Shown one piece after another: positions 8,817-47,925 of a stretch of DNA of 64,000 nucleotides. Each line of letters starts with the position of its first letter. Positions within the stretch are counted from its first letter, which is position 1. Below the pieces are notes generated by a model. It was not told the origin of the DNA, did not search any database, and saw only the letters and a program-made list of their open reading frames with translations. Made by a program: the position numbers and the translations under genes. The stretch spans positions 253 to 64,252 of IMG/VR virus record IMGVR_UViG_3300029825_000749. The stretch is one strand, 5' to 3'. This DNA is from a virus.

Positions 8817-9027
8817 AGACTTTTATAAAATCAGGTGGAAATGGATTATGAAAAAGGACAAAGTTAAAATAGGATTAGTGCAGTACTATGAAAGAAAAGA
8901 TGGGGATTATACTATTGTTATACCTTTAACATTTAAACTTAAAGCTAATAATAGTAGTGAAGCTTACAAGAAAGCTTTTAAAATCTTAAGTAATGGTATA
9001 GAGTATGATTGATTTTTTATATGTAAT

Positions 9028-28091: not shown

Positions 28092-28097
28092 TTTTAG

Positions 28098-29348: not shown

Positions 29349-29352
29349 GTAT

Positions 29353-29775
29353 ATGGTAACTACAGATACTAGTCAAGAATCACCATCATCCTATGACCTT
29401 GTAGAAGTACAATGTGAAGGTATAGGTAAAATTATTTGTAAAGGATTTAAATTCACCAAGAAAATCAAAGCAGATGGAAAAGAAGATTGCAGTAACTATG
29501 ATTACTATGATTGGATTTTATCTAATAGGACTTATGAATGGGAAATCACAGAACCAATGGATTATGATTGGTTCGATAGTCGATTTGATGAGCAAGTGAC
29601 AGATAAGAAAGGATTAGCAATCACAGGATATGCTGAAAACGATAGTAGTGAATGGATTCCTAAAGAAAAATTTTTAGGATGTATTATAACAGAAACCGGT
29701 CGTGAATTCAGTTCAGGGATTAAAAGAACAATAAAAGGAAGTGCATTAAGTGCACAAAACTTAAGCACTTCCTAA
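29353..29775 (+). CDS. Tail tube protein
   Basis: 140 aa, directly after the sheath gene. Confidence 0.75.
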   Translation: MVTTDTSQESPSSYDLVEVQCEGIGKIICKGFKFTKKIKADGKEDCSNYDYYDWILSNRTYEWEITEPMDYDWFDSRFDEQVTDKKGLAITGYAENDSSEWIPKEKFLGCIITETGREFSSGIKRTIKGSALSAQNLSTS

Positions 29776-29792
29776 ATTTTAAGGAGTTGTAG

Positions 29793-30545
29793 ATGGGAAT
29801 AGAAAGAAAAACGAAGGAAGAAGTAGATGTAAACAGTTTCTATAATAAGGAGATGCTGCCGCAAGACCTTAAACAAATACCAATCGAGGTCTTAGATGAG
29901 AATGCACAAATCTTAGTTGAAAGGGTGGAAGCAGGAGAAACATTAATAGATGATGAATATGCTGAAGTTAGAAAAATCTTAAAGGAGTATCGTCCTTATA
30001 TTGAAAAATACAAACCTGTAGAAACTGTAAAAGCTTATGAAAAGTTTGAAGAAAATCTTACAACTGAAAGAGAACTCTTAGACATCTTAGATTATGATGC
30101 GGGGGGAACAACTTTACACATGAGACTACCTGTGCATGGAAAAGAATACAAGGATTTATACTTCAAAATTCGTCCATTAAATGATAGTCGTGCAATAAAA
30201 TTCAGTGAAAACCATATAGATTTATTTAAAGATTTGAAACCAAATCAAAGAAGAATTTATGAGAAAAATGCACGTGGAGAACCGATAAGTAAAGAAGAAG
30301 CAGATATTTTAAACAGTATCAATGATAAAATTGTTGAAAATCGTATTGAACAAAAAGCAGAACTTATTAACGAATTATTAGCATTCCAAGTAACTCCACC
30401 AGATTTTGATGGAGATATTGAAAAACGTAAGGATTTTTGGGAGAATAGTTTTCCATTTAATGCTAAAGTTTCCTTATTCATGAAAGTGGAAAGTATATTA
30501 GGTTTAACTGACGAATTTAACGAGAAACTTTTTCCAGATAGCTAA
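29793..30545 (+). CDS. Tail assembly chaperone (gpG-like)
   Basis: Between the tube and tape measure genes. Confidence 0.7.
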   Translation: MGIERKTKEEVDVNSFYNKEMLPQDLKQIPIEVLDENAQILVERVEAGETLIDDEYAEVRKILKEYRPYIEKYKPVETVKAYEKFEENLTTERELLDILDYDAGGTTLHMRLPVHGKEYKDLYFKIRPLNDSRAIKFSENHIDLFKDLKPNQRRIYEKNARGEPISKEEADILNSINDKIVENRIEQKAELINELLAFQVTPPDFDGDIEKRKDFWENSFPFNAKVSLFMKVESILGLTDEFNEKLFPDS

Positions 30546-30735
30546 TAGTTGGCAAGGAGAAGTCTATTTTAGAATTAGTAAACATTTAAACATACCTGTG
30601 AGTGAAGTTATTAAAAAGAAATTCACTCCAGATATAAAATTTTTAATATTTAAATACCACCAACAACTAATTTTTGAAAAAGAAGAAGCAGAGAAAATAA
30701 GAGATATGCAAAGTGAGATGAGAAGTAATGCCTAG
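30508..30735 (+). CDS. Chaperone frameshift extension (gpT-like), +1 frame
   Basis: Open +1 frame FFQIANSWQGEVYFRISKHLNIPVSEVIKKKF...SNA fills the gap to the tape measure gene; no ATG near its 5' end; CTT TTT C slippery site at 30528-30534. Confidence 0.75.
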   Translation: MTNLTRNFFQIANSWQGEVYFRISKHLNIPVSEVIKKKFTPDIKFLIFKYHQQLIFEKEEAEKIRDMQSEMRSNA

Positions 30736-33700
30736 CGCCGAAGATGTAATGATTATGTTTGAGGGGGTAGATAATGTTAGTAATGTTACTTCTGGAATTA
30801 AAAGTGAAATTAATGGAATAGGGTCCAGTGCATCTGCATCTGGAGGTTCTATTACGGGAGCTTTAAGTGAGGCAGCTTCATCTTTCGGTACGCTTAATGG
30901 AATTATTGCAAGTACTGTTGGTGTTCTTGCGGGTAAAAGTTTATCTGATTTAATTGTAGGTAATGCAGAAACAAAAGAAACAAACCAAGTGCTCCTTACA
31001 GGTATGGCTGATACTGAAAGTGGTGTTAATAGTCTTTATGATACAATTGATAATGCTACTAATCAGTCATTAGTTAGTATGAATCAATTAATTCCTGCAT
31101 TAAAAACTTTCAGTGCAGAAACTGGGTTAAATGGATCTTCATTAGAAGAAGTTGTTCCACAATTTGCACAGTTTGGTTCATATATGCTTGCTATGACTGG
31201 CAGTAGTGAAATTGCTACTACTGCTATGACAAAGTTGAGTAATGGGATTTATGGGTCTTCACAATTTCTTAAGAGATATGGTATTAGTCAAGAAGTACTT
31301 AAAGAGAAAGGTTGGAGTGGTCAGGAAGATGATGTAACTGGTTATATGGATGCAGTTATCAAAGCGATTGGTAATACTAATGAATTCATGAATACGACTG
31401 AGGGTGCAGTAATGACTCTTAACAAGAGATTTAGTACTGCAGGTAAATCAATTGGTGAAGAAGTTATCCCTATGATTAAAAAAGCTGCTCAAAGTTTAGT
31501 TGCATTAAATGATTGGTCAGGAGGACAACTTTTTAAGGACTTTCTTTATTTAGCATCAGGTGTAGATATTCTTATAGCTGGTTTGGGGCAATTTACAGTA
31601 ATTGTTAAAGGTTTTGAAAGTGTAATTCAATCACTTAAAGCTTTTGGGGCTGTAGGTACTGCAATAAAATCAAAATTTGTTGGAGCAGATAAATTAGCTG
31701 AAGGTGCTTCTAAAGACAAAGAAGCAGCAGGAAATGCAAAAGTATCGGCAAGTAATAAAGAATTAACTGTAAGTAATGCAGGATTAGCTTCAAGTAATGC
31801 TGAAGTTGGTACTAGTTTTGAAGCTTTAAATGCTATTAAACAATCTACATCAAGTGTTAATGCCTCACTTATAGGTGAGAATGAAGCACTAATTGCAAGC
31901 AATCAAGCATTATCTGAAAGTAATGCTACTGCAGGTGCAACTGGAGAGGTAGATGATGTTTTAGATTTAACTGATATGGAATTAAATAGTGCTGCAAGTC
32001 ATGCGAATACAGTACCTGTTGCAAAAGCACAAAGTGTTCCTACAAATTTAGGTGCAATTGAGAGTGAAACATCACAGGTTGAAAAGAATACTTCATCAAT
32101 ACTAAAGAACAATACTGCTAAATCTGGTTTGAAGAGTAGTGAGAATAATTTAATTAATGGTGTAAAAGATACTGCAGGATCCCTAAGCAAAGAAGGGGAA
32201 ATGATGGGAGATGTAGCGGGCACAACTGGTCTTTTTGGCTCTGGTATAATGGCATCAATTGGGCCATTACTTGCTATAGTAGCAGTAATAGCAGTTGTGG
32301 TAGTCTCAGTTTATGAATTAGGAAAAGCTTTTGGATGGTGGAGTGATGTAGGATCTATGATAGATTCTATAAAATCTGGTGTTCAAAGATTATGGGCAGC
32401 ATTCACCGGTTCGTCTGCAGTTAAAGGAATTGTAAAAACATTACAGATGGGATTCCAAACCCTTAAAAATATTATTGTAGATGTAGGTAGTGTAATCTCT
32501 ACAGTTTTTGGTGAAATCTTTGGATACATGGGTAGTAGTGATCCAGTGAAAAATATAATTAATAGTTTTGGAAAATTACAACCAATAATTAATGGTATTA
32601 GTAAAGCGTTCCAAGGAGCATTTAGTTTTATTAACAGTATACTAGCTAGTTTCATGGATCAGTGGAATGTTTTTGCAAATAGTGATTCTGGTCAAGAATT
32701 ATTCGCAGCCGTTAGACAAGCTTTTCAAGCAGTAGGTCAAGCTTGGAATCAATTACAACCTGCAATAGGACAAATTGTTAGTGCTTTTGGACAATTATTT
32801 GGAGCTATTACAGGTAAAAGTAGTGGTGGGGGTTCATCCAATATTGCCGCCATAATGGTTCAAGTATTAATTTTAGCATTAAAAGGAGCAGTTGTAGTTA
32901 TACGTACATTTGCAACCGCGATACAAATAGTAGCATCAGTGATTAGTGCTGTTGCAGGAGTTATAACTAGTATTGCTGGTGCTATAAACTGGTTACGGGG
33001 AGCATTTAGGAATATAGGTGCTTCAGTACAACATGCAGGACAGATGATAGCGAACTTCCCAAAATATCTAGCTAACCTACCTGGAAAAATAGGACAATTC
33101 ATCACATCCTCTTTACAAAAGATTCTACAATTTGCATCTAAGATGAAAACAAATGCGATGAAAGCTGGAACGAATTTCCTTAATGGAATAATAAATAATA
33201 TTAAAACCTTACCTAGTAAATTATGGAATACCTTACTTAAAGCAATACAAAAGCTTTTACAATTTGATACTAAAGGAAAAGTCGAAGCAGTAAAAGCAGG
33301 GATGAATATTGTAAATGGTGTGATTAACTGGGTTAAACAATTACCTGCAAAAATAGGGCAATGGTTTACAAGTGCGGTTGGAAGAATCTTGAACTTTGTT
33401 GGACAAGCATTAGCAAATGCTCAACAAGTAGGTATGAGTGCAGTAAATGGTGTGATTAACTGGGTTAAAACATTACCTGGTAAAGTTTATAATGAATTTA
33501 TAAAAATTGGACAAAAAATTCATGATTCAGTTTCAAGTGCAGTATCAGCTGCAACAAGTTTTGGATCTGATATTGTAAATGCAGTAATGGGAGCATTACA
33601 CATTGCATCCCCTGGTATAATTCAAAGAAGTATAGCTAAAGAATTTGCAGATATACCTAAAAGAATAAGTGAAAGCAATAGTGATGCAGAAGGAAGAAGT

Positions 33701-34042
33701 AAAAGCTTTGCAGAAAGTATTAAAAAAGGATTTGGTAAACCTAAACTCAACGTTGGAACAGCATTGAACCTTAAAACAAATAATGCAAGCCCCATGGCAG
33801 ATTATCAAAAACATTTGCAGAATCAATTAAAACTTAAAACACAAGCAGTAAACCTTGCAGCTGGTGGAGTAAAAGCTATTGGTGGAACTCAAATTGTGCA
33901 AAAACATGTTCATTTAAGTAAAGGTGCCGTACCTATAGATGCAAGGAATATGACACAACGTGAAGCTGAAAAAGTTGTAATAAGTGCACTTGAACAATGG
34001 GGAAACACTTCAACAACAACATCAACAAATGGGGGTGTATGA
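30728..34042 (+). CDS. Tape measure protein
   Basis: 1104 aa, Ala/Gly-rich helical, with periodic aromatic repeats (WVKQLP..IGQW). Confidence 0.92.
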   Translation: MPSAEDVMIMFEGVDNVSNVTSGIKSEINGIGSSASASGGSITGALSEAASSFGTLNGIIASTVGVLAGKSLSDLIVGNAETKETNQVLLTGMADTESGVNSLYDTIDNATNQSLVSMNQLIPALKTFSAETGLNGSSLEEVVPQFAQFGSYMLAMTGSSEIATTAMTKLSNGIYGSSQFLKRYGISQEVLKEKGWSGQEDDVTGYMDAVIKAIGNTNEFMNTTEGAVMTLNKRFSTAGKSIGEEVIPMIKKAAQSLVALNDWSGGQLFKDFLYLASGVDILIAGLGQFTVIVKGFESVIQSLKAFGAVGTAIKSKFVGADKLAEGASKDKEAAGNAKVSASNKELTVSNAGLASSNAEVGTSFEALNAIKQSTSSVNASLIGENEALIASNQALSESNATAGATGEVDDVLDLTDMELNSAASHANTVPVAKAQSVPTNLGAIESETSQVEKNTSSILKNNTAKSGLKSSENNLINGVKDTAGSLSKEGEMMGDVAGTTGLFGSGIMASIGPLLAIVAVIAVVVVSVYELGKAFGWWSDVGSMIDSIKSGVQRLWAAFTGSSAVKGIVKTLQMGFQTLKNIIVDVGSVISTVFGEIFGYMGSSDPVKNIINSFGKLQPIINGISKAFQGAFSFINSILASFMDQWNVFANSDSGQELFAAVRQAFQAVGQAWNQLQPAIGQIVSAFGQLFGAITGKSSGGGSSNIAAIMVQVLILALKGAVVVIRTFATAIQIVASVISAVAGVITSIAGAINWLRGAFRNIGASVQHAGQMIANFPKYLANLPGKIGQFITSSLQKILQFASKMKTNAMKAGTNFLNGIINNIKTLPSKLWNTLLKAIQKLLQFDTKGKVEAVKAGMNIVNGVINWVKQLPAKIGQWFTSAVGRILNFVGQALANAQQVGMSAVNGVINWVKTLPGKVYNEFIKIGQKIHDSVSSAVSAATSFGSDIVNAVMGALHIASPGIIQRSIAKEFADIPKRISESNSDAEGRSKSFAESIKKGFGKPKLNVGTALNLKTNNASPMADYQKHLQNQLKLKTQAVNLAAGGVKAIGGTQIVQKHVHLSKGAVPIDARNMTQREAEKVVISALEQWGNTSTTTSTNGGV

Positions 34043-34428
34043 GTATGGCTAATGAAAAACATGAAGAAAATGTTGAAATTAATGGATTCTTATTCTATGC
34101 TCATGAAATCACACCAACTGAGTCATATAGTCGAAGAGAATTTAACAGGACAAATATTCTTGGAGGTAGTACCTTTGTTAGTAAAGGAGCATATGTCCCT
34201 AAAGAATTCACATTCAGTGCAGATGTAGATATAAACCCCCTCAAACCAGATATTTATGATAAAGCTTTTAGCTACATTAATAATAATCCCTGTACAGTCA
34301 CATCAAGGTATATGGGAATGTTTACAGCTGAGGTGAAGATTAGTAAAACACATAATAAATCTAGTCCAGCAAATATTAGTTTAAGTATAAGTGTTAAAGA
34401 GATTCCTGAAACAACAGTAGAGGTGTAG
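34039..34428 (+). CDS. Tail tube initiator/distal tail-like protein
   Basis: Follows the tape measure gene; ATG at 34039 overlaps its stop (ORF track starts at 33997). Confidence 0.6.
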   Translation: MSMANEKHEENVEINGFLFYAHEITPTESYSRREFNRTNILGGSTFVSKGAYVPKEFTFSADVDINPLKPDIYDKAFSYINNNPCTVTSRYMGMFTAEVKISKTHNKSSPANISLSISVKEIPETTVEV

Positions 34429-34432
34429 GTGT

Positions 34433-35608
34433 GTGATTGAGGATAAAACAAGTATAACTGAAACACCTGCAAGCACAAACAAATATGTAGACACAGTAAA
34501 ACCTGTGTATGGAGAATATCCTATAAAAAGGGTTTTAAATGAGGAGAATGTTGCTGAGAAAAAGAAGTTAGATAAAAAAAGAAAAGAAGCTGAGAAAAAG
34601 GCTAAGGAAAAAGCAAAAAATGCAGCTTCAAAATCTTCAACAAGCACTGATGAAGAGGGTAATACAGAAAGTACAAAATCTTCATCTACATCCTCATCCT
34701 CTTCAAACTCAAGTAGCTCCTCAAGTTCCAGTAGCTCCTCAACTGATTCTTCAAGTTCCAGTATGAAATCATCATCTAAATCTACAATGTCCTATGGGAC
34801 AAATACTATAGGTGCAATAGCTGCTGGTAAGAAAGGAACAGAATCTGAAAAATTAGATGAAATCTTAAAAACCATTAAAGAGGATGACACTACTTGGACT
34901 GATGAAGATGGTAAAAAGAAAAAGAAAACTTTAGTCAAAGAAGATTTATCAACATCAAAGGCGCAGAAAAATCCTTTTGTGGAAAAAATCCTAAGACCTC
35001 TACAATCTTCAATGAAAGAAGGAATGTTAGAAGTGTACGAAACTGATGAGGAAAACTTCACTCCTTATGAATCTACACCTGAAGAAGATGAAAAAGATAA
35101 GGATAAAGACACTGAAGATGAAGAGGAGGACACTGATGATGAAGAAACAAGTGGTGAAGATGCAACAAGTGATGAAGAAGAAATCACTTATCATCAAGGA
35201 GAAATCCTTAGTACCTCCTACTATCCTTTTAATTTTAGCTACACTTTTGATACGGATTACACTGAGGGAACAGGTGAATCAAAGGTAGATTCATATATAT
35301 TCACTGATGAAGATCTAAATTATATTTACAAAGGTGTACGAGTCTTATTGAAGCTGGGTTGGTTACAATTTGGTGAAAAGTTACCGACAAATGATACTGA
35401 ATTGAAGAAAATCAAAGCAGATATTACAAATAGTGTGACTGCAAAGATTACAAAATTATTCAATCAAAAATGGGCATCACAGAAGAAAGCATATAAAGAA
35501 TACGAAAAAACAAAAGCCGAACAAGAAGCAGCAAAAGCTCAAGCAGAAGCAAGTTCATTAACAAGCGACACGGATGAAGATAGTGGTACTACAACTGAGG
35601 AGAATTAG
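34433..35608 (+). CDS. Baseplate hub-like protein, fragment 1 (Ser-rich and acidic linkers)
   Basis: Ordered core YHQGEIL...YKGVRVLLKLGW among low-complexity tracts; hub position. Confidence 0.55.
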   Translation: MIEDKTSITETPASTNKYVDTVKPVYGEYPIKRVLNEENVAEKKKLDKKRKEAEKKAKEKAKNAASKSSTSTDEEGNTESTKSSSTSSSSSNSSSSSSSSSSSTDSSSSSMKSSSKSTMSYGTNTIGAIAAGKKGTESEKLDEILKTIKEDDTTWTDEDGKKKKKTLVKEDLSTSKAQKNPFVEKILRPLQSSMKEGMLEVYETDEENFTPYESTPEEDEKDKDKDTEDEEEDTDDEETSGEDATSDEEEITYHQGEILSTSYYPFNFSYTFDTDYTEGTGESKVDSYIFTDEDLNYIYKGVRVLLKLGWLQFGEKLPTNDTELKKIKADITNSVTAKITKLFNQKWASQKKAYKEYEKTKAEQEAAKAQAEASSLTSDTDEDSGTTTEEN

Positions 35609-36727
35609 ATGGTAAAGAAGATTAAAGCAGGAAAATCTAGTAATTATTACACTCGACAATCTAATGGTAATTATATCCTCAGAAAAAAATCTGGACAAAT
35701 CATAACAGTTATTAAAAAGGGTTCGGCTCGTGCTAAAAAAGTAAGTCAAAGAGCAACAACATCTTCAGCAAATAGAATAACAAAGAAAGTAAGTAGTAAG
35801 AAATCTTCAAGTAAAAAATCTACATCATCATCTTCATCAAGTTCGTCATCATCTAGATCCTCTGAATCTTCAAGTTCAACTGGAAGTACAACGAGCACTG
35901 ATGGTACAAGTACAGATTCAACATCAACTGAAGAAATTACTCCTACTGGAATTACAATAACATTAAAGCAGTCACTTAAACAAAGCAAAGAAGTGATGAA
36001 ACAAGTAATCAAAGAAAACATCGATGAGGAATATGAAGAAGCTACTACTGGATTAACACATTCCTTACATGGTTTTATATGTGATAGTCAATTTACTTTA
36101 GATGGGTCTGAATTAACACTGGGAGCTTATGATAAGTTACTAGCTAAAAGTGATAAATTAACGTATACTGAAATGTTACGTTCACAAATCCTTGATGAAG
36201 TGATTATGACTGCTGGTTTAATACCTGTAGTGGATTTCACAGATTTAACTGATGAAGTGATTAGTTGGACAAGTGTATCCTCATCAGGCAGTAAGGATAG
36301 TGGTGATGCTCAAGGTGATGGAAGTATGACAGAACAAGAGGCTTGGGATTGGGCTAAGAAAGTACCATACAATCATGGTACTAGTACTCATGATCCTAAG
36401 GAGGCTTATGATAAACTTAATAGTGGTACTGGTGCTGATTGTTATAGTTTAACAGCTGCATTGTATTATATTTTTAATTATAAGGTTGGTATTAAGGCAC
36501 GAGATATTTGTTATCATTCTCCTTATGCAAGTAGTGGTTCTCATCATACTATTCAGTTATATAGGAATGGTTCTTGGGATGATTGTGCTGATAAGTATAG
36601 GTCTTATACTAGTACTAATTTTCATGTTATTAGTTCTCGTTCTGGTGAGCATGTTTGCAGAGAATCTGGTGGTACAAGTTCTAGTTATCCTGCATATAGT
36701 AGTTGTCCTTATAGTAATAATGGTTAA
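35609..36727 (+). CDS. Hub fragment 2 plus C-terminal Cys-His-Asp (transglutaminase/Pei-like) peptidase
   Basis: HGFICDSQF...SQILDEVIMTAG...ISWTSV core; DCYSL...HHTIQLYRNGSWDD triad. Confidence 0.65.
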   Translation: MVKKIKAGKSSNYYTRQSNGNYILRKKSGQIITVIKKGSARAKKVSQRATTSSANRITKKVSSKKSSSKKSTSSSSSSSSSSRSSESSSSTGSTTSTDGTSTDSTSTEEITPTGITITLKQSLKQSKEVMKQVIKENIDEEYEEATTGLTHSLHGFICDSQFTLDGSELTLGAYDKLLAKSDKLTYTEMLRSQILDEVIMTAGLIPVVDFTDLTDEVISWTSVSSSGSKDSGDAQGDGSMTEQEAWDWAKKVPYNHGTSTHDPKEAYDKLNSGTGADCYSLTAALYYIFNYKVGIKARDICYHSPYASSGSHHTIQLYRNGSWDDCADKYRSYTSTNFHVISSRSGEHVCRESGGTSSSYPAYSSCPYSNNG

Positions 36728-36839
36728 AAAAAAACAGATTCCCATTTAATATGAAAGATATACTACTAATTGAGAAAAATAAAAATGTTCGAAATTAGAG
36801 TTAAATTATCCTAAAAATTGGTATAGATGTTTTTTCATC

Positions 36840-37190
36840 AATTTTTTTACTTCCAGGTAAGACACATTGTTTACTTTACCATTTTGTAAATATTTCCATA
36901 CTTTGATTAAGACTTTTTCCTCTCAATTGTTCAATAGAAAAAAATTTTCGAAAAAAATGTAAGTTTTTGCTTGTTTCATGGATATTATCAATGAAAGTTT
37001 TATTCCAAAAAGTACAAATGAGGATCCTTCATAAGATTGAGTGCATATATAATTATTTCAATAGGTATAATTTCAAGATTTCTACATAATTTTATTTTTT
37101 CTTAAATAGGACATTTTTAATGAGAGTGTAACAATCTCTCATTATTTTCCCTATGGTAAATTGAGCAGTTACACGCTGGTTTACCTAACA
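36840..37190 (-). pseudogene. Decayed Prim-Pol fragment homologous to the 4041..6842 primase
   Basis: 36840-37020 reads HLYF/WNKTFIDNIHETSKNLHF...LRGKSLNQSMEIFTKW*SKQCVLPGS versus primase aa 127-182; one frameshift and one stop; weaker similarity out to about 37190. Confidence 0.88.
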
Positions 37191-37395
37191 TTTTATCACC
37201 TAAAAAAAAAATAAATAAATTTATTTGAAAAAATAGAAGATATTTTTGAGTTTGAGGAGGGGAGTTTACCCCCCCTCTTTCTAAATTCTTCAATGTAACC
37301 TTTTAAGGTTTAATTCCTTAAGGTTGCTAAAAAACCCCATATATTTTATTTAAATTCATATACAATCTGGTCATGTTATAAAACAAAAAAATTGT

Positions 37396-37480
37396 GTGAG
37401 TATATCCAAGTCTGGTCAAAGGGTGCAGGTTTAGATCCTGTTGCTTTAGTGCTTCGTAGGTTCGAATCCTACTGCTTATA
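37396..37480 (+). tRNA. trnL: tRNA-Leu (TAG)
   Basis: Acceptor GTGAGTA/TGCTTAT; anticodon arm GCAGG-TTTAGAT-CCTGT; long variable arm; T arm GTAGG-TTCGAAT-CCTAC. Confidence 0.88.
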
Positions 37481-37483
37481 TCA

Positions 37484-37553
37484 CCACAGATGTCAGTTCA
37501 AATCTGGCTTAAGTAATACGTTGCTTGATAGTATAATCTGGTGATTACAGTGG
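37484..37553 (+). ncRNA. Circularly permuted tRNA-like RNA (T arm, closed acceptor stem, D arm)
   Basis: CCAC-AGAT-[GTCAG TTCAAAT CTGGC]-TTAAGTA-A-TACG-T-TGCTTGA-TA-[GTAT AATCTGGTGA TTAC]-A-GTGG. Confidence 0.65.
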
Positions 37554-37925
37554 ACAATTCATACTCCCCTTATTAGCTCGAGACAATGATAAGGGAGCTA
37601 TATGGTTGTAAATAAATTCAAATGTTTCCTCTCATGCTGAGTTTAAATCTCAGGGGAAACTATTTTTATATCAAATCTCCCGTTCTTTATGGAAAATGTA
37701 TAATGGAAAGGCATACATTAAGGGGGAATCATTTATTTTTTAGATTTCCCTATTTCCTCATACATTTAAATAAGCGATTAATAATCATATGGTATTGTAT
37801 GCCCTCTAATAATTTAAACTATTTATGCTGGGTTTGGGGGCGATAGCTCCCAGCTACCACTTTAAAATTTAGTAAATAATTTCATGAAAAAGAGTAAATT
37901 GGTAAATATTTATACTCTTTTCAAA

Positions 37926-37996
37926 GGATTTATAGTGTAATGGTAACATAGAGGATTCCAAACCCTTTAATGTCAGTTCGATTCTGACTAAGTCCA
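37926..37996 (+). tRNA. trnW: tRNA-Trp (CCA), intronless
   Basis: GGATTTA/TAAGTCC acceptor; loop TTCCAAA; T arm GTCAG-TTCGATT-CTGAC. Confidence 0.88.
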
Positions 37997-38202
37997 TTTT
38001 TTTCAAATATTCGATAATTCTGAATAGTTCAGTTGTAAACTATTAGTTGACAACTTAATTTTATCACAAAGTGGTAAAGTAAAATACCACAAAATAGTAA
38101 AGTGATTTACCCGAAAATAGTCCAGTAAAAAAAATCTTCAAACAAAATTTTAAGTAAATAAAGCACGTATGAATTCTAAAAAGTTATTTAAAAACTAAAT
38201 AG

Positions 38203-38229
38203 GGTTTATTAAGGATTCCTTAATAAACC
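38203..38229. promoter_or_regulatory. Perfect 12-bp inverted repeat upstream of the XRE gene (operator candidate)
   Basis: GGTTTATTAAGG-ATT-CCTTAATAAACC, ending about 20 nt before ATG 38251. Confidence 0.55.
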
Positions 38230-38250
38230 TCATGAAGAGATATAAAAAAC

Positions 38251-38622
38251 ATGTTTAATAATCAACATATCACACAACGATTAAAAAAACTAAGAAACCA
38301 ATACAACATCACCATCAAAGAATTATCTCAATACTTACAATTAACTCCTAAAGAAATAAGAGAATTAGAAAATGGTGAAAAAACATTAACAATAAGCATC
38401 ATGGACAAACTATGTAACCTTTATGGTTGCAGTGAAGAATACTTACTATGCCAAAACAATTTCTATGATCCCCACCATTTCATTCATAGTAAAAACGAGT
38501 TAAAAGATTTAGGTGCGATTGCAGCAATGAACACTATAATAAGCAACATACAATTCCTTGATAAAGCATACAATGATTTTAAAAGTAATCTTATAAAAGA
38601 ATTAGAAAAGAATGATGACTAA
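38251..38622 (+). CDS. XRE/Cro-C1 HTH transcription regulator
   Basis: LKKLRNQYNITIKELSQYLQLTPKEIRELENGEK. Confidence 0.88.
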   Translation: MFNNQHITQRLKKLRNQYNITIKELSQYLQLTPKEIRELENGEKTLTISIMDKLCNLYGCSEEYLLCQNNFYDPHHFIHSKNELKDLGAIAAMNTIISNIQFLDKAYNDFKSNLIKELEKNDD

Positions 38623-38800
38623 TAGTTTAGAAGCAGAATATTATTTTGGAATCAAAACAGTAATAGAAGACACTACTACTTTTGATAATTACTGGAGAAA
38701 TGTAAATGCTCATTATTTATTCAACAAATACTACACCCACTTTAAAAAGGTAAGTCATAAATCAGAACACCAATTTTATAAACAATTTCAACCACCCTAA
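38612..38800 (+). CDS. Small hypothetical protein
   Basis: Overlaps the XRE stop. Confidence 0.4.
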   Translation: MMTNSLEAEYYFGIKTVIEDTTTFDNYWRNVNAHYLFNKYYTHFKKVSHKSEHQFYKQFQPP

Positions 38801-38925
38801 AAAAAAGTATGTTGCTATGAACACATTTTGGACACTTAACATTTTAACCACACTTTATTCCTTAAATCAAATTCTAAGTAAGTTAAACCATTTTGAATGA
38901 CCATATTTTTATACATATTATATGA

Positions 38926-39000
38926 GCTATTATAACACAATTAAGTTAGTGCAATCCCTGCGTAAGGGATAGGTTGTAGGTTCGAGTCCTGCTAATAGTT
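38926..39000 (+). tRNA. trnT: tRNA-Thr (CGT), degenerate or possibly pseudo
   Basis: GCTATTA/TAATAGT acceptor, ATCCC-TGCGTAA-GGGAT arm, canonical T arm; but G33, no D-loop GG, and A10-C25 mismatch. Confidence 0.65.
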
Positions 39001-39059
39001 TTTTAAATACACTTAAAAAAGTGTAATGAAAACATGAAAATTTTAAATACACTGAAAAG

Positions 39060-39260
39060 ATGATGAATTTATTACAAAATCTTGAAACAATTCCTGCTGA
39101 CTATGGGAAAATTCAGGGCAAAAAGGATATTGAAAAATTTAGGAAGAATATAATAAACACGACAGATGAAGAGGAGTTGAGAGAGGAATATGTTGAGAAA
39201 ATTAGGAGAATTGAATTAGAAAAATCTATACTGCTAAGAGATTTAGATGAATTCTTCTAA
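39060..39260 (+). CDS. Small charged protein ending in a PIP-box-like LDEFF
   Basis: 66 aa; C-terminus ILLRDLDEFF. Confidence 0.5.
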   Translation: MMNLLQNLETIPADYGKIQGKKDIEKFRKNIINTTDEEELREEYVEKIRRIELEKSILLRDLDEFF

Positions 39261-39331
39261 GGAGAATTAAAAATAGAAAATCTAAAGTTAGTTTAGTATG
39301 GACAACTAAAAAAAGGAGTTGATGAGAAAGT

Positions 39332-40069
39332 ATGGCTGATGATACAATAACAGTGAACATGATGCCCTCTTGTGGATCTTGCAAAAATCAAAGTGATTAT
39401 CAAGGTTACAAGAAGTACACAAAAACTTGGAAAAACCTTTGTACCAGTACAACATGTAAAAGCAAAACACCAGGAACATTGCAAAACAATCCAAAAGGAA
39501 CATATGAAGGAGAATTGACTTGTAGTAAGTGTGATAGTGATTATTGTGGTTTTTGTGGTACTGAGAAAAGTGGTAGTGCAAGATTTAAACTAGTAAGTGC
39601 AACAGCATCAACTGAAAAAACAGATACTAGTGATACAGGAACAACCTCTGGCAGCACCTTTTGGGATATGATACTGGATCTTATCGGACCTTTGGATGGG
39701 GAAATTGAATGTCGAGTTGAAGGAGATAAAGTTTTCATAAATAAGATTCCAGAACCTGAAGAATCCGAGTTATGGATAAGAGAAGGTATTAATGTCACTG
39801 ATGATAGTATTACAGTAACAGATTACAATCCAGATACTTACAATACATTTGTGATTAGTTGGGCAGGTGGAACAATTGTACTCACTGATAAAAAAATGAT
39901 TGAAAGGTTCGGTGAGAAGATCCTCGAGAAAGATGCAACAAAAGAAGTTGTCACTTATGAAGCAAAAACAATCAGTACAGATACATCAACCGATAGCAGT
40001 ACTGATACTTCAACCAATAGTTCAAGTACAACAGACACAGATAGCAGTACAACAGATTCAACAGGATAA
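39332..40069 (+). CDS. Cys-rich domain plus hub fragment 3
   Basis: Eight Cys in aa 14-76; core TFWDMILDL...CRVEGDKVFINKI...DYNPDTYN; Ser/Thr/Asp tail. Confidence 0.6.
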   Translation: MADDTITVNMMPSCGSCKNQSDYQGYKKYTKTWKNLCTSTTCKSKTPGTLQNNPKGTYEGELTCSKCDSDYCGFCGTEKSGSARFKLVSATASTEKTDTSDTGTTSGSTFWDMILDLIGPLDGEIECRVEGDKVFINKIPEPEESELWIREGINVTDDSITVTDYNPDTYNTFVISWAGGTIVLTDKKMIERFGEKILEKDATKEVVTYEAKTISTDTSTDSSTDTSTNSSSTTDTDSSTTDSTG

Positions 40070-40086
40070 AAAGGTAATTTAATTGA

Positions 40087-40815
40087 ATGGTTAAGAAGAT
40101 AAAAGCTGGGAAATCAAGTAACTATTACACAAGGGAAAAGAATGGTAATTATGTCCTAAGAAATAAGAATGGTTATAAAATTGGTTCAGTAATCAAGAAA
40201 GGATCAACCCGTGCAAAGAAAATTACATCACGTGCTACAACATCTTCTGCGAGTCGAGCAACAAAAAAGGTTAGTAGTAAAAAATCTTCAAGTTCATCAA
40301 GTTCAAGTTCTGGATCTTCAACATCATCAACAAGTTGGAGCAGTGCAGATTCATCAAGCACAACTGATAGTAGCAGTAGCACCAGTACAACACTAGTTGC
40401 AGTGAAAAAAGAAGTACTCATAGATAATTATGATGATGCTTACAAGTTTGCAAAAACAGAATTCTACAAAGCACGAAGAGATAACAAACACACCCTTGAA
40501 TGTAAAGTCATTGGATCTGGAAAATGGAAACAAGGAAAATGGGCATATTGCTATATTCCAGATTACAAAATCAATATGTATATGTACATCACCAAAGCAT
40601 CACATGAAATCGATGATGATGGTAAATGGTTAACAAGTTTAACCTTACAAGATTATCCCCCATCACTTAGTTCCGGTGATAGTCATGATCCAATAAAATC
40701 TGATGATAACAGTAGTGATACAAGTAGTGAGCAAGGCACAGATGATGATGGAACAAACACAACAACTACAGACTACACTATTTCTTCAACTTCCTCAACA
40801 AGCAGTACAGGATAA
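40087..40815 (+). CDS. Hub fragment 4 (C-terminal barrel)
   Basis: KARRDNKHTLECKVIGSGKWKQGKW...TSLTLQDYPPSL; N-terminal module shared with 35609. Confidence 0.6.
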   Translation: MVKKIKAGKSSNYYTREKNGNYVLRNKNGYKIGSVIKKGSTRAKKITSRATTSSASRATKKVSSKKSSSSSSSSSGSSTSSTSWSSADSSSTTDSSSSTSTTLVAVKKEVLIDNYDDAYKFAKTEFYKARRDNKHTLECKVIGSGKWKQGKWAYCYIPDYKINMYMYITKASHEIDDDGKWLTSLTLQDYPPSLSSGDSHDPIKSDDNSSDTSSEQGTDDDGTNTTTTDYTISSTSSTSSTG

Positions 40816-41024
40816 ATATGATGATTTAATCTATAATTTTAAAAAAAATTTATTATATTCCTCTTTTGTTTTTTTATAAATTCATTAAATTGGATTGGTA
40901 TATTCAATTATTTAATTATTAAATTAACTTATAAACACTTATATTAAATCAATACTAAAAATGGGAATAAGAAAACTTAAGTTATTTAATATATTTTAAA
41001 AATATTGAAAGGGGTATTAAAAAA

Positions 41025-42758
41025 ATGGGATCTGAAAAAACACTTTGTAAATGGGAAAATAATGATTGGAAAATAAGATTAGAAGCAATATTAGAAATAG
41101 ATGATGAGCAATTGTTAATGAGTATTGCAAAAAACGATGATAGTAGCAGTGTACGTGCTGCTGCAACAGATAAAATCACTGATGAGCAATTGTTAATGAG
41201 TATTGCTAAAAATGATCCAGATGAAGATGTACGAGTAGCAGCAGTATATAATATTAATAATGAAAACTTTCTAATTAGTGTTGCTAAAAATGATAAAGAC
41301 TGGACTGTGCGCTCAGCAGCTGCAGAAAAAATCACAACTGAAAAAATCTTAATAAGTATTGCTAAAAAAGATCCAGATGAGGATGTACGAGCAGTAGCAA
41401 TAGAAAAAATCACAGATGAACAAATATTAGAAAACATTGCACAAAATGATAAAGACTGGACAGTCCGTGAAATAGCAGTAAAAAAAATAACTAATGAAGA
41501 ACTTTTAATTAGTATTGTTAAAAATGATGAGAATAATAATGTTCGAAAAGCTGCAATAGAAAAAATAGATGATGAAAAAGTTTTAATCACTATTCTAAAA
41601 AACGAGGAAGATACTGAAGTAATTAGAGCAGTAATCGATAAAATAGATGATGATGAAGTTTTAATCACATTTGTTAATAACAATCCAGATTCCTGTACTG
41701 TTAAAAGTGCAGAAAAAATATTTGATGATGAAACTTTAATCAAAATAGCACAAAAAAATACAAACAAAGAAACACGTAAAGAAGCAGTTAGTAAAATTTA
41801 TAATGAAAAAATTCTACTTAATATTGTAAAAAACGATTCTGATGTAAATGTTCGATTAGAAGCTATTAAAAATATAATTGATAATGATATTTTAAAAGAG
41901 ATTCTTTTTGATTCAGATGATTATGATGTTTGTGCTACTGTTGCATGTAAATTGGATAATGATATTTTAAAAGGTATTGCTTTAAGTTCTCATGATACGG
42001 ATGTTTGTGTTGTTGCTGTTAGTGGAATAAATAATAATTCCTATCTAAAAGATATTGCTGTAGAAAGTGATGATAGGGAGGTTTGTCTTGCTGCTGTTGA
42101 TGCGATAAGTTATAATGATGATTTAAGAGATGTTGCTTTGGAATCTGGTGATGGGGAGGTTTGTTTGGCTGCTGTTGGTAGGATGAGTGGTGATTTTTAT
42201 TTAAGTGATGTTGCTTTGGAATCTGGTGATAGGGAGGTTTGTGTTGCTGCTGCATGTAAATTGGATGATGATGATGTTTTACATGATATTATTTTGAATA
42301 ATGAAGATGGTAAAGTCCATCTTAAAGATATTGAAAAAATAAATGATAATGAAATTTTAAAAGATATTGCTTTAAGTTCTCATGATACGGATGTTTGTTT
42401 GGCTGCTGTTGGTAGGATGAGTGATGATTCTTATTTAATAGATGTTGCTTTGGAATCTGGTGATGGGGAGGTTTGTTTGGCTGCTGTTAAGAAGATAAAT
42501 GATGAGGATATTTTATTTAAGGTTGCTATGGGGTCTGATGGTAAGGTTGGTGTTGCTGCTGTTAAGAAGATAAATGATGAGGATATTTTATTTAAGGTTG
42601 CTATGGGGTCTGATGGTAAGGTTGGTGTTGCTGCTGTTGGTAGGATAGATGATAAAAATCGTTTAGTTGATATTGTTTGGGATTCTAATGATGAATGTGT
42701 AAATATGGCTGCTTTTGAGAAGCTAGATGATGAGGATATTAAAAAATTTTTCTCATAA
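41025..42758 (+). CDS. HEAT-like alpha-solenoid repeat protein
   Basis: About 20 repeats of 25-26 aa (L..IAKND.D..VR.AA..KI.DE). Confidence 0.85.
   Translation: MGSEKTLCKWENNDWKIRLEAILEIDDEQLLMSIAKNDDSSSVRAAATDKITDEQLLMSIAKNDPDEDVRVAAVYNINNENFLISVAKNDKDWTVRSAAAEKITTEKILISIAKKDPDEDVRAVAIEKITDEQILENIAQNDKDWTVREIAVKKITNEELLISIVKNDENNNVRKAAIEKIDDEKVLITILKNEEDTEVIRAVIDKIDDDEVLITFVNNNPDSCTVKSAEKIFDDETLIKIAQKNTNKETRKEAVSKIYNEKILLNIVKNDSDVNVRLEAIKNIIDNDILKEILFDSDDYDVCATVACKLDNDILKGIALSSHDTDVCVVAVSGINNNSYLKDIAVESDDREVCLAAVDAISYNDDLRDVALESGDGEVCLAAVGRMSGDFYLSDVALESGDREVCVAAACKLDDDDVLHDIILNNEDGKVHLKDIEKINDNEILKDIALSSHDTDVCLAAVGRMSDDSYLIDVALESGDGEVCLAAVKKINDEDILFKVAMGSDGKVGVAAVKKINDEDILFKVAMGSDGKVGVAAVGRIDDKNRLVDIVWDSNDECVNMAAFEKLDDEDIKKFFS
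42480..42629 (+). repeat. Exact 75-bp tandem duplication
   Basis: 42480-42554 is identical to 42555-42629. Confidence 0.85.
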
Positions 42759-43049
42759 TATTTAATGATGATCTTCGTGAATTAGCTAAAGCAAAATTGA
42801 AACAGTTAAAATAATAAGCATATTAATAATTCTTAAAGAATATTAATATGATTTTTTAAATATTTTTTTACATTTAAATTTAATAAGATAAGTTATATTT
42901 TTTTAACTTTTCTTAGAATGAATTTTTTATTTTTTTTTATTTTAAGGTGGTTGTAAAAGGCCATATTCTATTTTTTTTTACATTTTTAAAGGGAAATATT
43001 AATTTTTGAGTTAGTTTAAATAAATTTTTAAGGTTTAATATAATAATTT

Positions 43050-44438
43050 ATGGTTAAGAAAGCACAAGATGTAGTACTAACACCAGGAAGAGGACCTATA
43101 GCATTAAACAATGTTATAAATCAGATTGGTGGAAAAGTAACTGCAAAAGAAGTGAAAAGTAAAAGTGAAAACTTGAAGATCCGTACTGGAAAAGTAGTGC
43201 GTTTTTATCCTCAAACTGATAAGGTTAGTGTAAAGTTGGATGATACTGGAAAAATTGTACGATGTGTTATGCTTCATAACCTTGCAGTTTCAGGGGAAGC
43301 TACTATTAGTTTCACCCCTTCAGGAAGCATAAGTACTGATGTGGAAAATGATAATGAATATTCCATTATACCTTTTAATGAGCATATAGTAGCAGTATTA
43401 AATATTAAGGATAGTTTAAATAAATCTGAGTATTTATGTTTAGGGTTTATTAGTAGAGATAGTTCGCTTATTAAAAGTAATGGTGAAGTTGGAGAGTATT
43501 TGGTTTCTAATGATAATAGTAAAGTTAGTGTTAAGCAGTCACAGGTGAATATTGAGAGTGAAAATTTATATTTGAATGGTAATAGGATCCAAGCTACTGA
43601 TGAATTATCTAAGATTTTTGCAACTAAAGAGGATGTGGTGTGTACTGTGAAAAGTTTAGTAAGTGATAGTGCAATCACAACTCCACCATCCACACCAGCT
43701 GCTGATGAAGAAGTTCAAGTAAATACAAGCTCTCAGGTAGATACAGAAATAGAAGCTTTGAAGGAAAGATTATCAGAAATTGAAAATACTACAACAAGTG
43801 AGAAATCTGAGATTAGTTTTAATTCTAACATTTCCAATAATGAGGAGATTTTAACTGGAAAAGTTTTAATAATAATCCTAAAGAATGCAGTTACAAATGA
43901 GTTAGCAGTTGATGAGAATGTTAGTGTAATCTTAACAAGATTCAGTGATAATCAGAGTAAGACTTATGCAGGAACAACTGATAGTTTAGGAAATTATAGT
44001 CTACCTCTTAATTTATCTGCAGGGGCTTACACTTATCAAATAATTTATAATGGATCTAATATTTATAAGGCAAAAACTGGTGAAGTGGTGAAATTCATGA
44101 TAGGTGCAGGCAGTGACGATGGGAAGAAAAGTATCTGCTTTGAAAGTAATATCAAAGATAATGAAAGTATTACAAAAGGGAGTATAATCACCTGCAAGTT
44201 CACAGACTGTACAAATGGAGTAGCATTAACAGGATTAACAGGAAAATATATTTTAACACGATTAAGTGATAATCAAAGCAAAACTTATGCTGAAACAACA
44301 GATAATTTAGGAAATATGATTATAACAATTAATCTTTCAAAAGGAGATTATTCGATACAAGCAAGCTATGATGGTGATGAAATTTACAGTAAAAAAACTG
44401 GTGAAGTAATAAAATTCAAGGTGGGAATAAAAGAATGA
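43050..44438 (+). CDS. Baseplate spike (gpV/gp45-like) with two Ig-like C-terminal domains
   Basis: N-terminal OB-like TGKVVRFYP..DKVSVKL; two repeats of LTR.SDNQSKTYA.TTD.LGN...NLS.G.Y....Y.G. Confidence 0.7.
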   Translation: MVKKAQDVVLTPGRGPIALNNVINQIGGKVTAKEVKSKSENLKIRTGKVVRFYPQTDKVSVKLDDTGKIVRCVMLHNLAVSGEATISFTPSGSISTDVENDNEYSIIPFNEHIVAVLNIKDSLNKSEYLCLGFISRDSSLIKSNGEVGEYLVSNDNSKVSVKQSQVNIESENLYLNGNRIQATDELSKIFATKEDVVCTVKSLVSDSAITTPPSTPAADEEVQVNTSSQVDTEIEALKERLSEIENTTTSEKSEISFNSNISNNEEILTGKVLIIILKNAVTNELAVDENVSVILTRFSDNQSKTYAGTTDSLGNYSLPLNLSAGAYTYQIIYNGSNIYKAKTGEVVKFMIGAGSDDGKKSICFESNIKDNESITKGSIITCKFTDCTNGVALTGLTGKYILTRLSDNQSKTYAETTDNLGNMIITINLSKGDYSIQASYDGDEIYSKKTGEVIKFKVGIKE

Positions 44439-45391
44439 TAAATAATGAAGAACAAGAATTTTACATCACTCAAGGCCATGATATAGAAATACAATCATCT
44501 CCAGAAGGCCATATTCATGATTATAATCATTGGGATTTAGTAATGGAGAATGATGATTACACCATCACTTCAGGGGAGGATACCTTGTTTAATGCTTGTG
44601 CAATTGCAATACTTACTGGTTATAATGAGATGGGTGATAGGTATGAGAATAGTACTTATTCAATGTTTGGTAATCCGGCTTATGGATTATTAAAAACTAA
44701 TAAATCTGAATTGGTCAAATTTAAGATTGAGGAATACATTAAGAAAGTTTTAAAAAGTATTCGTAGAGTAGGGGAACTTGTAGAGGTAGTGGTAAGTGAG
44801 GATGAGTTTAATCCTTATGCGTATAATGTGTTCTTTCATGTGATTGGATTGGATGATGAGCATGCAAGTGGTGAAATCAATTTAGGGAAAGCCAGAGATG
44901 GGAAGTATGGAACTACCTGCAGGATACGAGATTTAACAAATAATAATATAATAATCATCAAATCCATAGAAGGAGCAGTTATACAAGCCTTACTCAAGGA
45001 CAGTAGAAATAGAGGAGTAAGTAAAGAATTATTAACCCTAAATTCCCTTGCAGATTTAGATGAAGATACTAAACTTACAAACAATACTGGATCTGTAACT
45101 TATCATTATACACCTAAACCTGGTATTGGTAAAGATTATATTTATGTAAGTTATAATGGTAGTTCTAGTTTTAAACCATGTAAGAGTAATACTTTAAAAG
45201 TATTGTATTTGTTTTTTTCTTTGAAAATTGTAGATGGTGAATTAATTTTTACTTATGATGATGATTATTACTATCCTGATTTTAGGTTAAATAGTGAGGG
45301 TGAGTTGATTATGACTTATGATGATGAAAAGATAAGAATAAGAAATGTATACATTAATGATGATGGGTATTTAATATTTGAGGTAAATTAA
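44435..45391 (+). CDS. gp25/gpW-like baseplate wedge protein with Ig-like extension
   Basis: IEEYIKKVLKSIRRV lysozyme-like wedge pattern; C-terminal TNNTGSVT..Y...YNGSSSF. Confidence 0.6.
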   Translation: MINNEEQEFYITQGHDIEIQSSPEGHIHDYNHWDLVMENDDYTITSGEDTLFNACAIAILTGYNEMGDRYENSTYSMFGNPAYGLLKTNKSELVKFKIEEYIKKVLKSIRRVGELVEVVVSEDEFNPYAYNVFFHVIGLDDEHASGEINLGKARDGKYGTTCRIRDLTNNNIIIIKSIEGAVIQALLKDSRNRGVSKELLTLNSLADLDEDTKLTNNTGSVTYHYTPKPGIGKDYIYVSYNGSSSFKPCKSNTLKVLYLFFSLKIVDGELIFTYDDDYYYPDFRLNSEGELIMTYDDEKIRIRNVYINDDGYLIFEVN

Positions 45392-45401
45392 AAAGAATTT
45401 T

Positions 45402-46313
45402 ATGGTTAAACAGAATGTTAATTTAGGAATTGTGAAACTCTTATACTCTTCTTTAAGTGATAAAGAAAAAAAGGAGATTACAGGTAGGAGTATTGAGTAT
45501 ATTATTGATAATGCGAATCATAGGGTTGGTTTTCGTGTTGAGGGGGAAACAAGTTATACTTATACGGATTCTCTTAAAGGAGATACTGGTATTCAGGGTA
45601 ATCCTGGATACTTTTTTACTCCTGTAATTAGTAGTGATGGGATATTATCCTGGAGGAATAATGGGGATTTAAGTAATCCTGAAAGTGTGAATGTTAAAGG
45701 TGATAAAGGTGATGCTTTTAAGTATTCTGATTTCACCTTAGAGGAATTAGCTAGTCTTAAAGGGGAAAAGGGTGATACTGGAGGTATTGGTCCTCAAGGT
45801 GAGAAAGGTGAAACTGGTAGTACTGGTCCTCAAGGTATTCAAGGTGAACAAGGAATACAAGGAGAAAAAGGTGATACGGGTGTTATTAAAATAGAGAAAA
45901 GTATTGTTAAATCCTTTAATGATTTACCAAGTACTGGTGATGATAGTATAATATATCTTGTACCGATTACTGGTGAGGATGTGAATGTTTATGAGGAATA
46001 CTTTTATATTAGTGAAACTGGTAAGTATGAGAAGGTAGGTAGTAGTAAAACTGATTTAACTGATTATTATAATAAATCTAGTGTTGATAGTGCCTTAAGT
46101 ACTAAGGTTAATACTAGTGATGTTTACAGTAAATCTGAATTGGATACTAGTTTAAGTACTAAGGTTAATATTGGTGATGTGTATACGAAAAATGAAGTTG
46201 ATACTAAGTTATCTGGTGTTAGTGTTGATTTAAGTGCTTATTATACGAAAAGTGAAGTTGATGCAATGCTGGGTGATGTTAATGCGAGTATGGATAGTAT
46301 TTTAGGAGTCTAA
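45402..46313 (+). CDS. Collagen-like tail fibre protein
   Basis: Gly-X-Y run KGEKGDTGGIGPQGEKG...; DLTDYYNKS.VD coiled repeats. Confidence 0.8.
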   Translation: MVKQNVNLGIVKLLYSSLSDKEKKEITGRSIEYIIDNANHRVGFRVEGETSYTYTDSLKGDTGIQGNPGYFFTPVISSDGILSWRNNGDLSNPESVNVKGDKGDAFKYSDFTLEELASLKGEKGDTGGIGPQGEKGETGSTGPQGIQGEQGIQGEKGDTGVIKIEKSIVKSFNDLPSTGDDSIIYLVPITGEDVNVYEEYFYISETGKYEKVGSSKTDLTDYYNKSSVDSALSTKVNTSDVYSKSELDTSLSTKVNIGDVYTKNEVDTKLSGVSVDLSAYYTKSEVDAMLGDVNASMDSILGV

Positions 46314-46317
46314 AATT

Positions 46318-47904: not shown

Positions 47905-47925
47905 AAAAGGGAGTTTAAAATTTTA

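Follow-up and report, generated by a model that had tools for sequence, protein, structure and literature searches.

A Methanobrevibacter-type provirus whose central baseplate hub is probably split into four polypeptides

In all contractile injection machines, including phage tails, pyocins, the type VI secretion system (T6SS), and extracellular contractile injection systems (eCIS), the baseplate hub is regarded as a single-chain component. Hubs of the gp27/gpD/gp44/XkdQ-YqbQ kind seat the tail tube and carry the spike. Natural fusion and fission is known at the boundary between hub and spike, where T6SS VgrG corresponds to phage gp27 plus gp5; the tail-tip protein can thus exist as one or several genes. 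The hub itself is one chain of ~300-390 residues in the closest described systems: XkdQ/YqbQ (PF24032), Mu gp44 (1WRU, 9KI1), MuSo2 3CDD, Neisseria 3D37, P2 gpD, and T4 gp27. Here, we describe a different arrangement in a 64,000-nucleotide stretch of viral DNA (the window; positions 253 to 64,252 of IMG/VR record IMGVR_UViG_3300029825_000749). The window is a myovirus-like provirus of a Methanobrevibacter-type methanogen and hence a virus of an archaeon. In the hub position, between 34433 and 40815, it holds four genes totaling 1,250 residues. We conclude that these probably encode the central baseplate hub, of the gp27/P2 gpD/Mu gp44/XkdQ-YqbQ kind, as four polypeptides carrying the segments F0-F1, F2, F3, and F4, respectively.

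The modules of the four pieces were delimited with small hidden Markov models (HMMs), which were built from window segments and scanned over all open reading frames (ORFs) of the window and of related loci. The pieces and their modules are as follows.

34433..35608, + strand: piece 1 (P0001, 391 aa), with a 185-aa extension, the F0 motif, an acidic linker, the F1 core, and a Lys/Glu/Ala-rich tail ending acidic
34997..35080, + strand: F0 strand motif of piece 1 (residues 189-216; HMM scan)
35195..35395, + strand: F1 core of piece 1 (residues 255-321; HMM scan)
35609..36727, + strand: piece 2 (P0002, 372 aa), with a basic leader (Nmod), a Ser-rich linker, the F2 core, and a transglutaminase-like domain
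35609..35758, + strand: Nmod of piece 2 (residues 1-50)
36065..36283, + strand: F2 core of piece 2 (residues 153-225)
36329..36724, + strand: transglutaminase-like Cys peptidase domain of piece 2 (residues 241-372)
39332..40069, + strand: piece 3 (P0003, 245 aa), with a Cys-rich zinc-ribbon-like domain, a Thr/Ser linker, the F3 core, and a Ser/Thr/Asp tail
39332..39586, + strand: Cys-rich zinc-ribbon-like domain of piece 3 (residues 1-85)
39647..39946, + strand: F3 core of piece 3 (residues 106-205)
40087..40815, + strand: piece 4 (P0004, 242 aa), with a second Nmod, a Ser-rich linker, the F4 core, and a Ser/Thr/Asp tail
40087..40236, + strand: Nmod of piece 4 (residues 1-50)
40399..40671, + strand: F4 core of piece 4 (residues 105-195)

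A first-pass annotation, made from the sequence alone, had proposed that each ORF carries one ordered core between Ser/Thr/acidic tracts and has its own start and ribosome-binding site (RBS). Both proposals hold. Conserved cores with Ser/Thr/Asp/Glu-rich flanks are seen in the translations, and a Shine-Dalgarno-like, purine-rich motif precedes each of the four starts by 6-13 nt (GAGGTG, GAGGAG, AGGAG, and AAAGGT for pieces 1-4). The start codon of piece 1 is GTG, and its N-terminal extension contains Lys-rich and Ser-rich tracts. The leaders of pieces 2 and 4 are paralogues with 75% identity; their likeness begins at the ATG, and the DNA 5' of it is unrelated. In Pfam, the basic leader gives only insignificant hits (DUF5766, 0.048; PBCV_basic_adap, 0.06) and piece 3 only weak IBR-like ones. 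The excised window cores F1, F2, and F3 have no hits in Pfam or PHROGs.

The four-ORF layout is not an assembly artefact, because the same four proteins are called, identical, on two to three further contigs (ENA, NCBI, and Logan) and because contigs from two unrelated DNA runs span the stop/start junction at 35606-35611 with no differences. Two RNA runs (X18 and X19) yielded a few short contigs exactly matching parts of piece 1, with most of the region uncovered; RNA libraries can contain DNA, and these contigs bear on neither transcription nor splicing.

Evidence that the four pieces belong together comes from relatives with fewer hub genes. Core searches gave 30 related loci and ~180 protein clusters, and module architecture was scanned in the 30 loci plus L038/L039. 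Throughout, the gene order is constant: a tube-initiator-like gene (UP143), the hub gene(s), a spike-like gene (SPK), a gp25-like gene, and Baseplate_J, with the exception that SPK sometimes lies between hub genes. What varies is the number of genes in the hub slot, from one to four. One-gene hubs are found in L038 (P0075, 601 aa, ordered F1-F2-Zn-F3-F4-TGase, where Zn is the zinc ribbon and TGase the transglutaminase-like domain) and in L039 (P0167, a compact form of 343 aa). Most loci, together with GenBank BK063677.1, have two genes, F0-F1-F2-TGase followed by Flav-F3-F4, in which a flavodoxin-like domain (Flav) precedes F3. Three genes are present in L004 and L014. Four are present in the window and in L002/L013, which derive from one contig and whose pieces are 70-96% identical to those of the window; L006 is a partial four-gene locus. 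In eight of the two-gene loci (L003, L009, L010, L017, L022-L024, and L028), SPK stands between the N-half and C-half hub genes.

We find that the window pieces align in order along the single-ORF relatives. On P0075, BLASTP places pieces 1-4 at residues 32-82 (piece 1 residues 261-312, E 9e-5), 93-179 (F2, E 1.5e-13), 201-396 (piece 3 residues 30-204, E 3e-26), and 398-477 (F4, E 3e-16). The fused relative P0005, an F0-F1-F2-TGase protein, matches piece 1 residues 188-321 at its residues 7-120 (E 4e-11) and F2 at 125-194 (E 1e-14). P0012, a Zn-F3-F4 fusion, is 62-69% identical to window pieces 3 and 4, with piece 3 residues 1-206 aligning to its residues 18-219 at 69% identity. Judged from the alignments to P0075, the order of the cores is far beyond chance. 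Collinearity with intact homologues had been set as a test beforehand, and the single-ORF P0075 and P0167, as well as the two- and three-gene forms, do align in order with the pieces.

These relatives also tie the pieces to a known hub family. The Pfam family YQBQ (PF24032, gathering score 27) is matched by window F4 at positions 232-293/294 (E 1.7e-4, 21.6 bits), and piece 4 matches phrog_400, 'tail protein', at E 2e-5. P0013, in which F3 and F4 are directly joined, matches YQBQ positions 120-294 at 43.8 bits, and P0075 matches positions 101-286 at 37.3 bits; both are above the gathering score. The N-terminal (F1-F2) regions of four single-ORF relatives (P0098, P0141, P0117, and P0104) give sub-threshold matches to positions 3-97. 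Thus, taken together, these matches cover the YQBQ profile whole and in order.

Fold comparison was made on models of relatives (P0005 and P0023) rather than on the window's own chains. The AlphaFold2 (AF2) model of P0005 has a predicted local distance difference test (pLDDT) score of 72. In Foldseek, it matches Mu gp44 (1WRU), 9KI1, 3CDD, 3D37, VgrG, Pvc8/Afp8-type proteins, and phage baseplate hubs, with E values of 3e-5 to 1e-2. In VIA, its residues 12-197 align with residues 6-148 of 3D37_A (Z 9.4, root-mean-square deviation 5.1, 129 aligned positions), and 9B45_d scores Z 8.8. The first-pass reading of the pieces as one continuous gpD/gp44/gp27-type hub is therefore upheld by the above-threshold YQBQ matches of fused F3-F4 and by the match of the P0005 model to solved hubs. 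The outcome that the annotation had named as fatal to this reading, in which the fragments fold independently into unrelated proteins, did not occur: the fused relatives match YQBQ and the P0005 model aligns to 3D37. A sequence search of the Protein Data Bank (PDB) with the F3F4 profile returned nothing relevant. Complex prediction with the four window cores and F2 as partner weighs neither for nor against binding: the score was 0.81, compared with 0.75 for a control in which chain 1 had been exchanged.

In the window and in the related loci that reach far enough, the hub genes keep their position: the tape measure and tube-initiator-like genes precede them, and the spike, gp25-like, and Baseplate_J genes follow. 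The two immediate landmarks in the window are as follows.

33997..34428, + strand: tube-initiator-like gene UP143 (143 aa), directly 5' of the hub gene(s) in 30/30 related loci
43050..44438, + strand: spike-like gene SPK (462 aa), after or between the hub genes in all related loci reaching far enough

The identities of these two landmarks are leads only, drawn from an Atlas feature search on language-model features. UP143 falls with clusters of phage tail tube, DNA_circ_N (Mu gp43 N), and P2 gpU proteins at 0.91-0.94 and has no hits in Pfam or PHROG; the spike-like gene falls with Phage_base_V clusters at 0.93-0.94. With that reservation, the hub position between tube initiator and spike, as claimed in the first-pass annotation, is borne out by the constant order across loci.

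All measured modules of the pieces are under purifying selection, one of several results indicating that the pieces are functional genes. Relative to L002, the ratio of nonsynonymous to synonymous substitution rates (dN/dS) is 0.06-0.33 for every measured module, with dS from 0.2 to ~1-2; tube and spike controls gave 0.17. By part, the ratio is 0.20 for piece 1, 0.06-0.33 for piece 2, 0.06 for the zinc-ribbon domain, 0.20 for F3, and 0.18 for F4. For the F4 leader, dS is saturated relative to L002 and no ratio is computable.

The cuts between pieces differ in age. The boundary between F2 and F3 is common to ~30 relatives; only the cuts between pieces 1 and 2 and between pieces 3 and 4 are young. 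The former is seen only in the window's lineage, and L004, where a Thr/Ser-rich linker of ~110 residues connects F1 to F2 within a single ORF, is an intermediate state for it. The cut between F3 and F4 arose several times: elsewhere it comes with unrelated leaders, which are hydrophobic (L040), acidic (L042), or short (L014). A library of representatives at 50% contains 37 F4-only and 24 F3-only clusters, some of them possibly contig-truncated. That fission has recurred at this one loop, and is conserved, speaks for continued cooperation of the fragments.

Two further observations concern the ends of separated pieces. The L004 F3 and F4 proteins (8704-9678 and 9680-10612) both end in the same basic C-terminal tail of ~48 residues; after the basic leaders, this is another terminal module that occurs in duplicate on hub pieces. 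Some of the stand-alone F4 clusters (P0078, P0080, P0084, and P0108) have a hydrophobic, transmembrane-like segment at the N-terminus and a Gly/Ser/Thr linker after it, an odd start for a protein of the baseplate center.

The domains attached to the cores are exchangeable, as the first-pass annotation had suggested in proposing swappable inserted domains. The slot between F2 and F3 is occupied by a zinc ribbon in some forms and by a flavodoxin-like domain in others, and the transglutaminase-like domain follows either F2 or F4. In the Flav-F3-F4 genes (e.g., L003 9080-10663), the N-terminal ~160 residues are predicted with high confidence to form a flavodoxin/CheY-like alpha/beta fold, with Z ~9 to receiver and cobalamin-binding domains.

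From these results, we propose the following history and assembly. An ancestral single hub gene would first have been enlarged in its surface loops by accessory domains and by long linkers rich in Ser/Thr/Asp/Glu. The domains would have been a zinc ribbon or flavodoxin-like domain, placed between F2 and F3, and, at a C-terminus, a transglutaminase-like peptidase. The genes would then have been cut within the linkers, and at both young cuts in the window lineage the same basic leader of ~50 residues would have come to open the downstream piece. The usual trimeric hub may form by non-covalent co-assembly of 12 chains, three from each of the four genes. The linkers would loop out, and the peptidase domain would ride at the tail tip, in a position to open the pseudomurein wall of the host. 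A broader generalization is more doubtful: the gp27-like hub fold could be inherently tolerant of splitting, with Methanobacteriales viruses cutting it again and again at expanded low-complexity loops and reassembling it from as many as 12 chains. In the window lineage, the leader would be a portable module, copied onto both young downstream pieces, and would serve as a docking or assembly tag that gathers the fragments.

Several points weigh against a four-polypeptide hub. The window pieces themselves reach YQBQ only below threshold, and family membership is carried by fused relatives with 30-70% identity. The F3-F4 part of the P0023 model is poor (pLDDT <50), and its Foldseek matches to 3CDD, 3D37, and 1WRU are weak (E ~1e-3). 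The VIA list for this model is filled by neighbors of its flavodoxin/CheY-like N-domain and carries no information on F3-F4. Linkers of 40-110 residues and the extra domains must also fit around a crowded baseplate center.

Among the alternatives, the one that survives best, though it is unlikely, holds that the pieces are real but no longer form one hub. Some would have moved to other roles, for instance decorating the baseplate or degrading the wall as a free or tethered enzyme, with only a subset left to form the ring. Every piece has indeed gained extra modules (leader, zinc ribbon, transglutaminase-like domain, or 185-aa extension), as such divergence would lead one to expect. However, the hub cores are as strongly conserved as other tail proteins, every relative has all four segments and has them in this slot, and no further hub candidate came to light between the tape measure and Baseplate_J genes.

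Restoration of one or two long polypeptides at expression, by read-through of a TAG codon, frameshifting, or RNA or protein splicing, has a very low probability. Its foothold is that pieces 1 and 2 share a reading frame and are separated by a single TAG (35606-35608), with the piece 2 ATG directly after it. The same two pieces are 120 nt apart in L002, however, and the abutting layout is therefore not conserved. Pieces 3 and 4 lie in different frames with a 17-nt spacer, and the DNA between pieces 2 and 3 has its own tRNA and regulator genes. The tRNA-Leu encoded there, with anticodon UAG, reads CUA and so is not a suppressor. No intein or Hint family was detected in any piece at E up to 10 in Pfam, and the leaders of pieces 2 and 4 lack the terminal His-Asn followed by Cys/Ser/Thr that marks a split intein. 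In each downstream piece, moreover, the start is conserved, an RBS-like motif precedes it, and the leader is under purifying selection (for the F4 leader, dS saturation as above). Read-through or splicing is thus conceivable only at the in-frame TAG between pieces 1 and 2. Least credible of all is that the four ORFs are the functionless remains of a hub gene that stops and an insertion broke as a defective provirus decayed: the element is a provirus, one in-frame TAG divides pieces 1 and 2, and a unique 2.6-kb island lies between pieces 2 and 3, but dN/dS in every measured module is like that of the tube and spike controls, L002 retains all four ORFs, with separate starts and with the leaders, at 14-30% protein divergence, the F2-F3 boundary is widely shared, and CheckV rates the record complete, with its sequence found in runs of 10 studies.

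The island that separates pieces 2 and 3 contains the following features.

36728..39331, no strand assigned: variable island of 2.6 kb between the N-half and C-half hub genes
37395-37482: tRNA-Leu(UAG) (ARAGORN, Rfam)
37926-37996: tRNA-Trp(CCA) (ARAGORN, Rfam)
38251-38622: XRE-type helix-turn-helix (HTH) regulator gene (Pfam HTH_3, E 1.6e-12)
38612-38800 and 39060-39260: small ORFs
38925-39001: tRNA-Thr(CGU) (ARAGORN, Rfam)

The first-pass description of a 2.6-kb tRNA/regulator island at this place is thus accurate, with three tRNAs and an XRE-type gene. Its suggestion that the hub is split across the island stands only in part: the island does sit between the pieces, but it did not split a gene, for nearly all relatives already have a gene boundary there. 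Searches of the island against all related loci by blastn and tblastx gave no matches, and L002-L004 have no tRNAs at this site. In place of the island, relatives have ~790 nt (L002), ~200 nt (L004), or, in several, the spike gene. Since the island is unique and the site is already a gene boundary in nearly all relatives, we interpret it as a lineage-specific insertion into an old intergenic site. A 174-nt segment of the island (36848-37021) is 73% identical, in inverted orientation, to 4418-4587 within a primase-helicase-like ORF of 933 aa (4041-6842). A single contig of DNA run X7 (depth 16, shorter side 40 letters) links 36734, at the end of piece 2, to 39395, at the start of piece 3, skipping the island. 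This is a weak hint of island-less variants and may stem from a related strain.

The C-terminal domain of piece 2 resembles transglutaminase-like cysteine peptidases. Its own match to Pfam Transglut_core is marginal (E 0.027), and the equivalent domain of relatives matches at E 4e-12; hhalign aligns the two with 90% probability (E 1.5e-6). The Cys (GADC) and His (SHH) of the piece 2 domain align with those of the relatives, and an Asp candidate lies in WDD. A sequence search of the window domain against PDB chains gave no matches. The domain in the P0005 model aligns with the pseudomurein endoisopeptidases PeiW and PeiP (PDB 8JX4 and 8Z4F; peptidase C71) at Z 10.7 and 10.9, respectively, and its top-ranked transglutaminase-like neighbor is 3ISR_B (Z 12.2). 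In contrast to PeiW and PeiP, the piece 2 domain is fused to a hub segment and is without pseudomurein-binding repeats (PMBR, PF09373), for which P0002 has no Pfam hits; the single-ORF relative P0180 does carry a PMBR. The peptidase module of piece 2 matches P0075 at residues 528-575 (BLASTP) and has therefore shifted from behind F4 to behind F2. A role for this domain in opening the wall of a pseudomurein-walled host at the tail tip is a reasonable inference.

The wider setting is that of a whole tailed virus. The window covers nearly all of a 69.3-kb IMG/VR provirus record and has a G+C content of ~31%. Its head-tail module includes terminase, portal, SU10-type capsid, sheath, tube, chaperone, and a tape measure of 1,104 aa, with Baseplate_J downstream. 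Hub-gene relatives in genome collections all lie on contigs of metagenome-assembled genomes (MAGs) of Methanobrevibacter or Methanobacteriaceae, bar one short Clostridiales-binned contig. GenBank BK063677.1, the sole deposited virus with the same genes, has Methanobacteriales recorded as its host. The 10 studies in which the window virus's own sequence recurs cover fermentation, sludge, wastewater, and bioreactor metagenomes. A megablast search of window positions 28000-48000 against phages gave no matches.

Other genes of the tail region also vary among relatives. In the window, the spike-like protein has two Ig-like C-terminal domains (Big_3_5/CarboxypepD_reg-like); at 462 aa it compares with 246 aa in L002 (10415-11155) and 800-850 aa in other relatives. 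Between piece 4 and the spike gene, the window also has a gene for a HEAT-repeat protein (41025-42758, 577 aa). This gene has no counterpart in the close relative L002 and is therefore probably a second lineage-specific insertion.

The series from one to four genes shows where the hub fold can open and what its loops tolerate, which is useful for tail-tip engineering and for the annotation of archaeal viruses. It offers a plausible route of gene fission, in which a low-complexity linker expands and is then cut. It also points to a candidate tail-borne, pseudomurein-cutting enzyme in viruses of the main methanogens of gut, rumen, and digesters. If the fold is tolerant of splitting and the leaders do dock, the virion would hold a natural multi-piece split-protein system and, with it, a means of attaching interchangeable modules (peptidase, zinc ribbon, flavodoxin-like domain) to the tail tip. 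Our literature searches, which did not extend to the 2023 methanogen-virus compendium, brought up no report of a hub divided within the gp27-like fold. The two hub genes of BK063677.1, vir080_00051 and vir080_00052, are annotated 'hypothetical protein'; this was the only deposited virus record consulted.

The hub described here can thus be placed among known systems by what it shares and where it departs. With the known single-chain hubs, it shares the segment order, the fold of the N-half, and the gene position. It differs from them in its low-complexity linkers, zinc ribbon, two basic leaders, and peptidase domain, and in having four ORFs with their own starts in place of one chain per protomer. 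The two-gene hubs of Methanobrevibacter and Methanobacteriales viruses (BK063677.1, L003, and L005-L033) are closer: they belong to the same virus group, occupy the same slot, have the same cores, with the transglutaminase-like domain after F2, and are 30-55% identical to the window pieces. In these, a flavodoxin-like domain replaces the zinc ribbon before F3, and there is no basic leader and no island. The single-ORF proteins P0075 and P0167 are collinear with the window pieces, carry the zinc ribbon between F2 and F3, and have the same neighbors, but are single chains; in P0075, the transglutaminase-like domain follows F4, whereas in the window it follows F2. Finally, the cut that distinguishes VgrG from gp27 plus gp5 parts two autonomous proteins, whereas the cuts in the window fall inside the gp27-like protomer itself.

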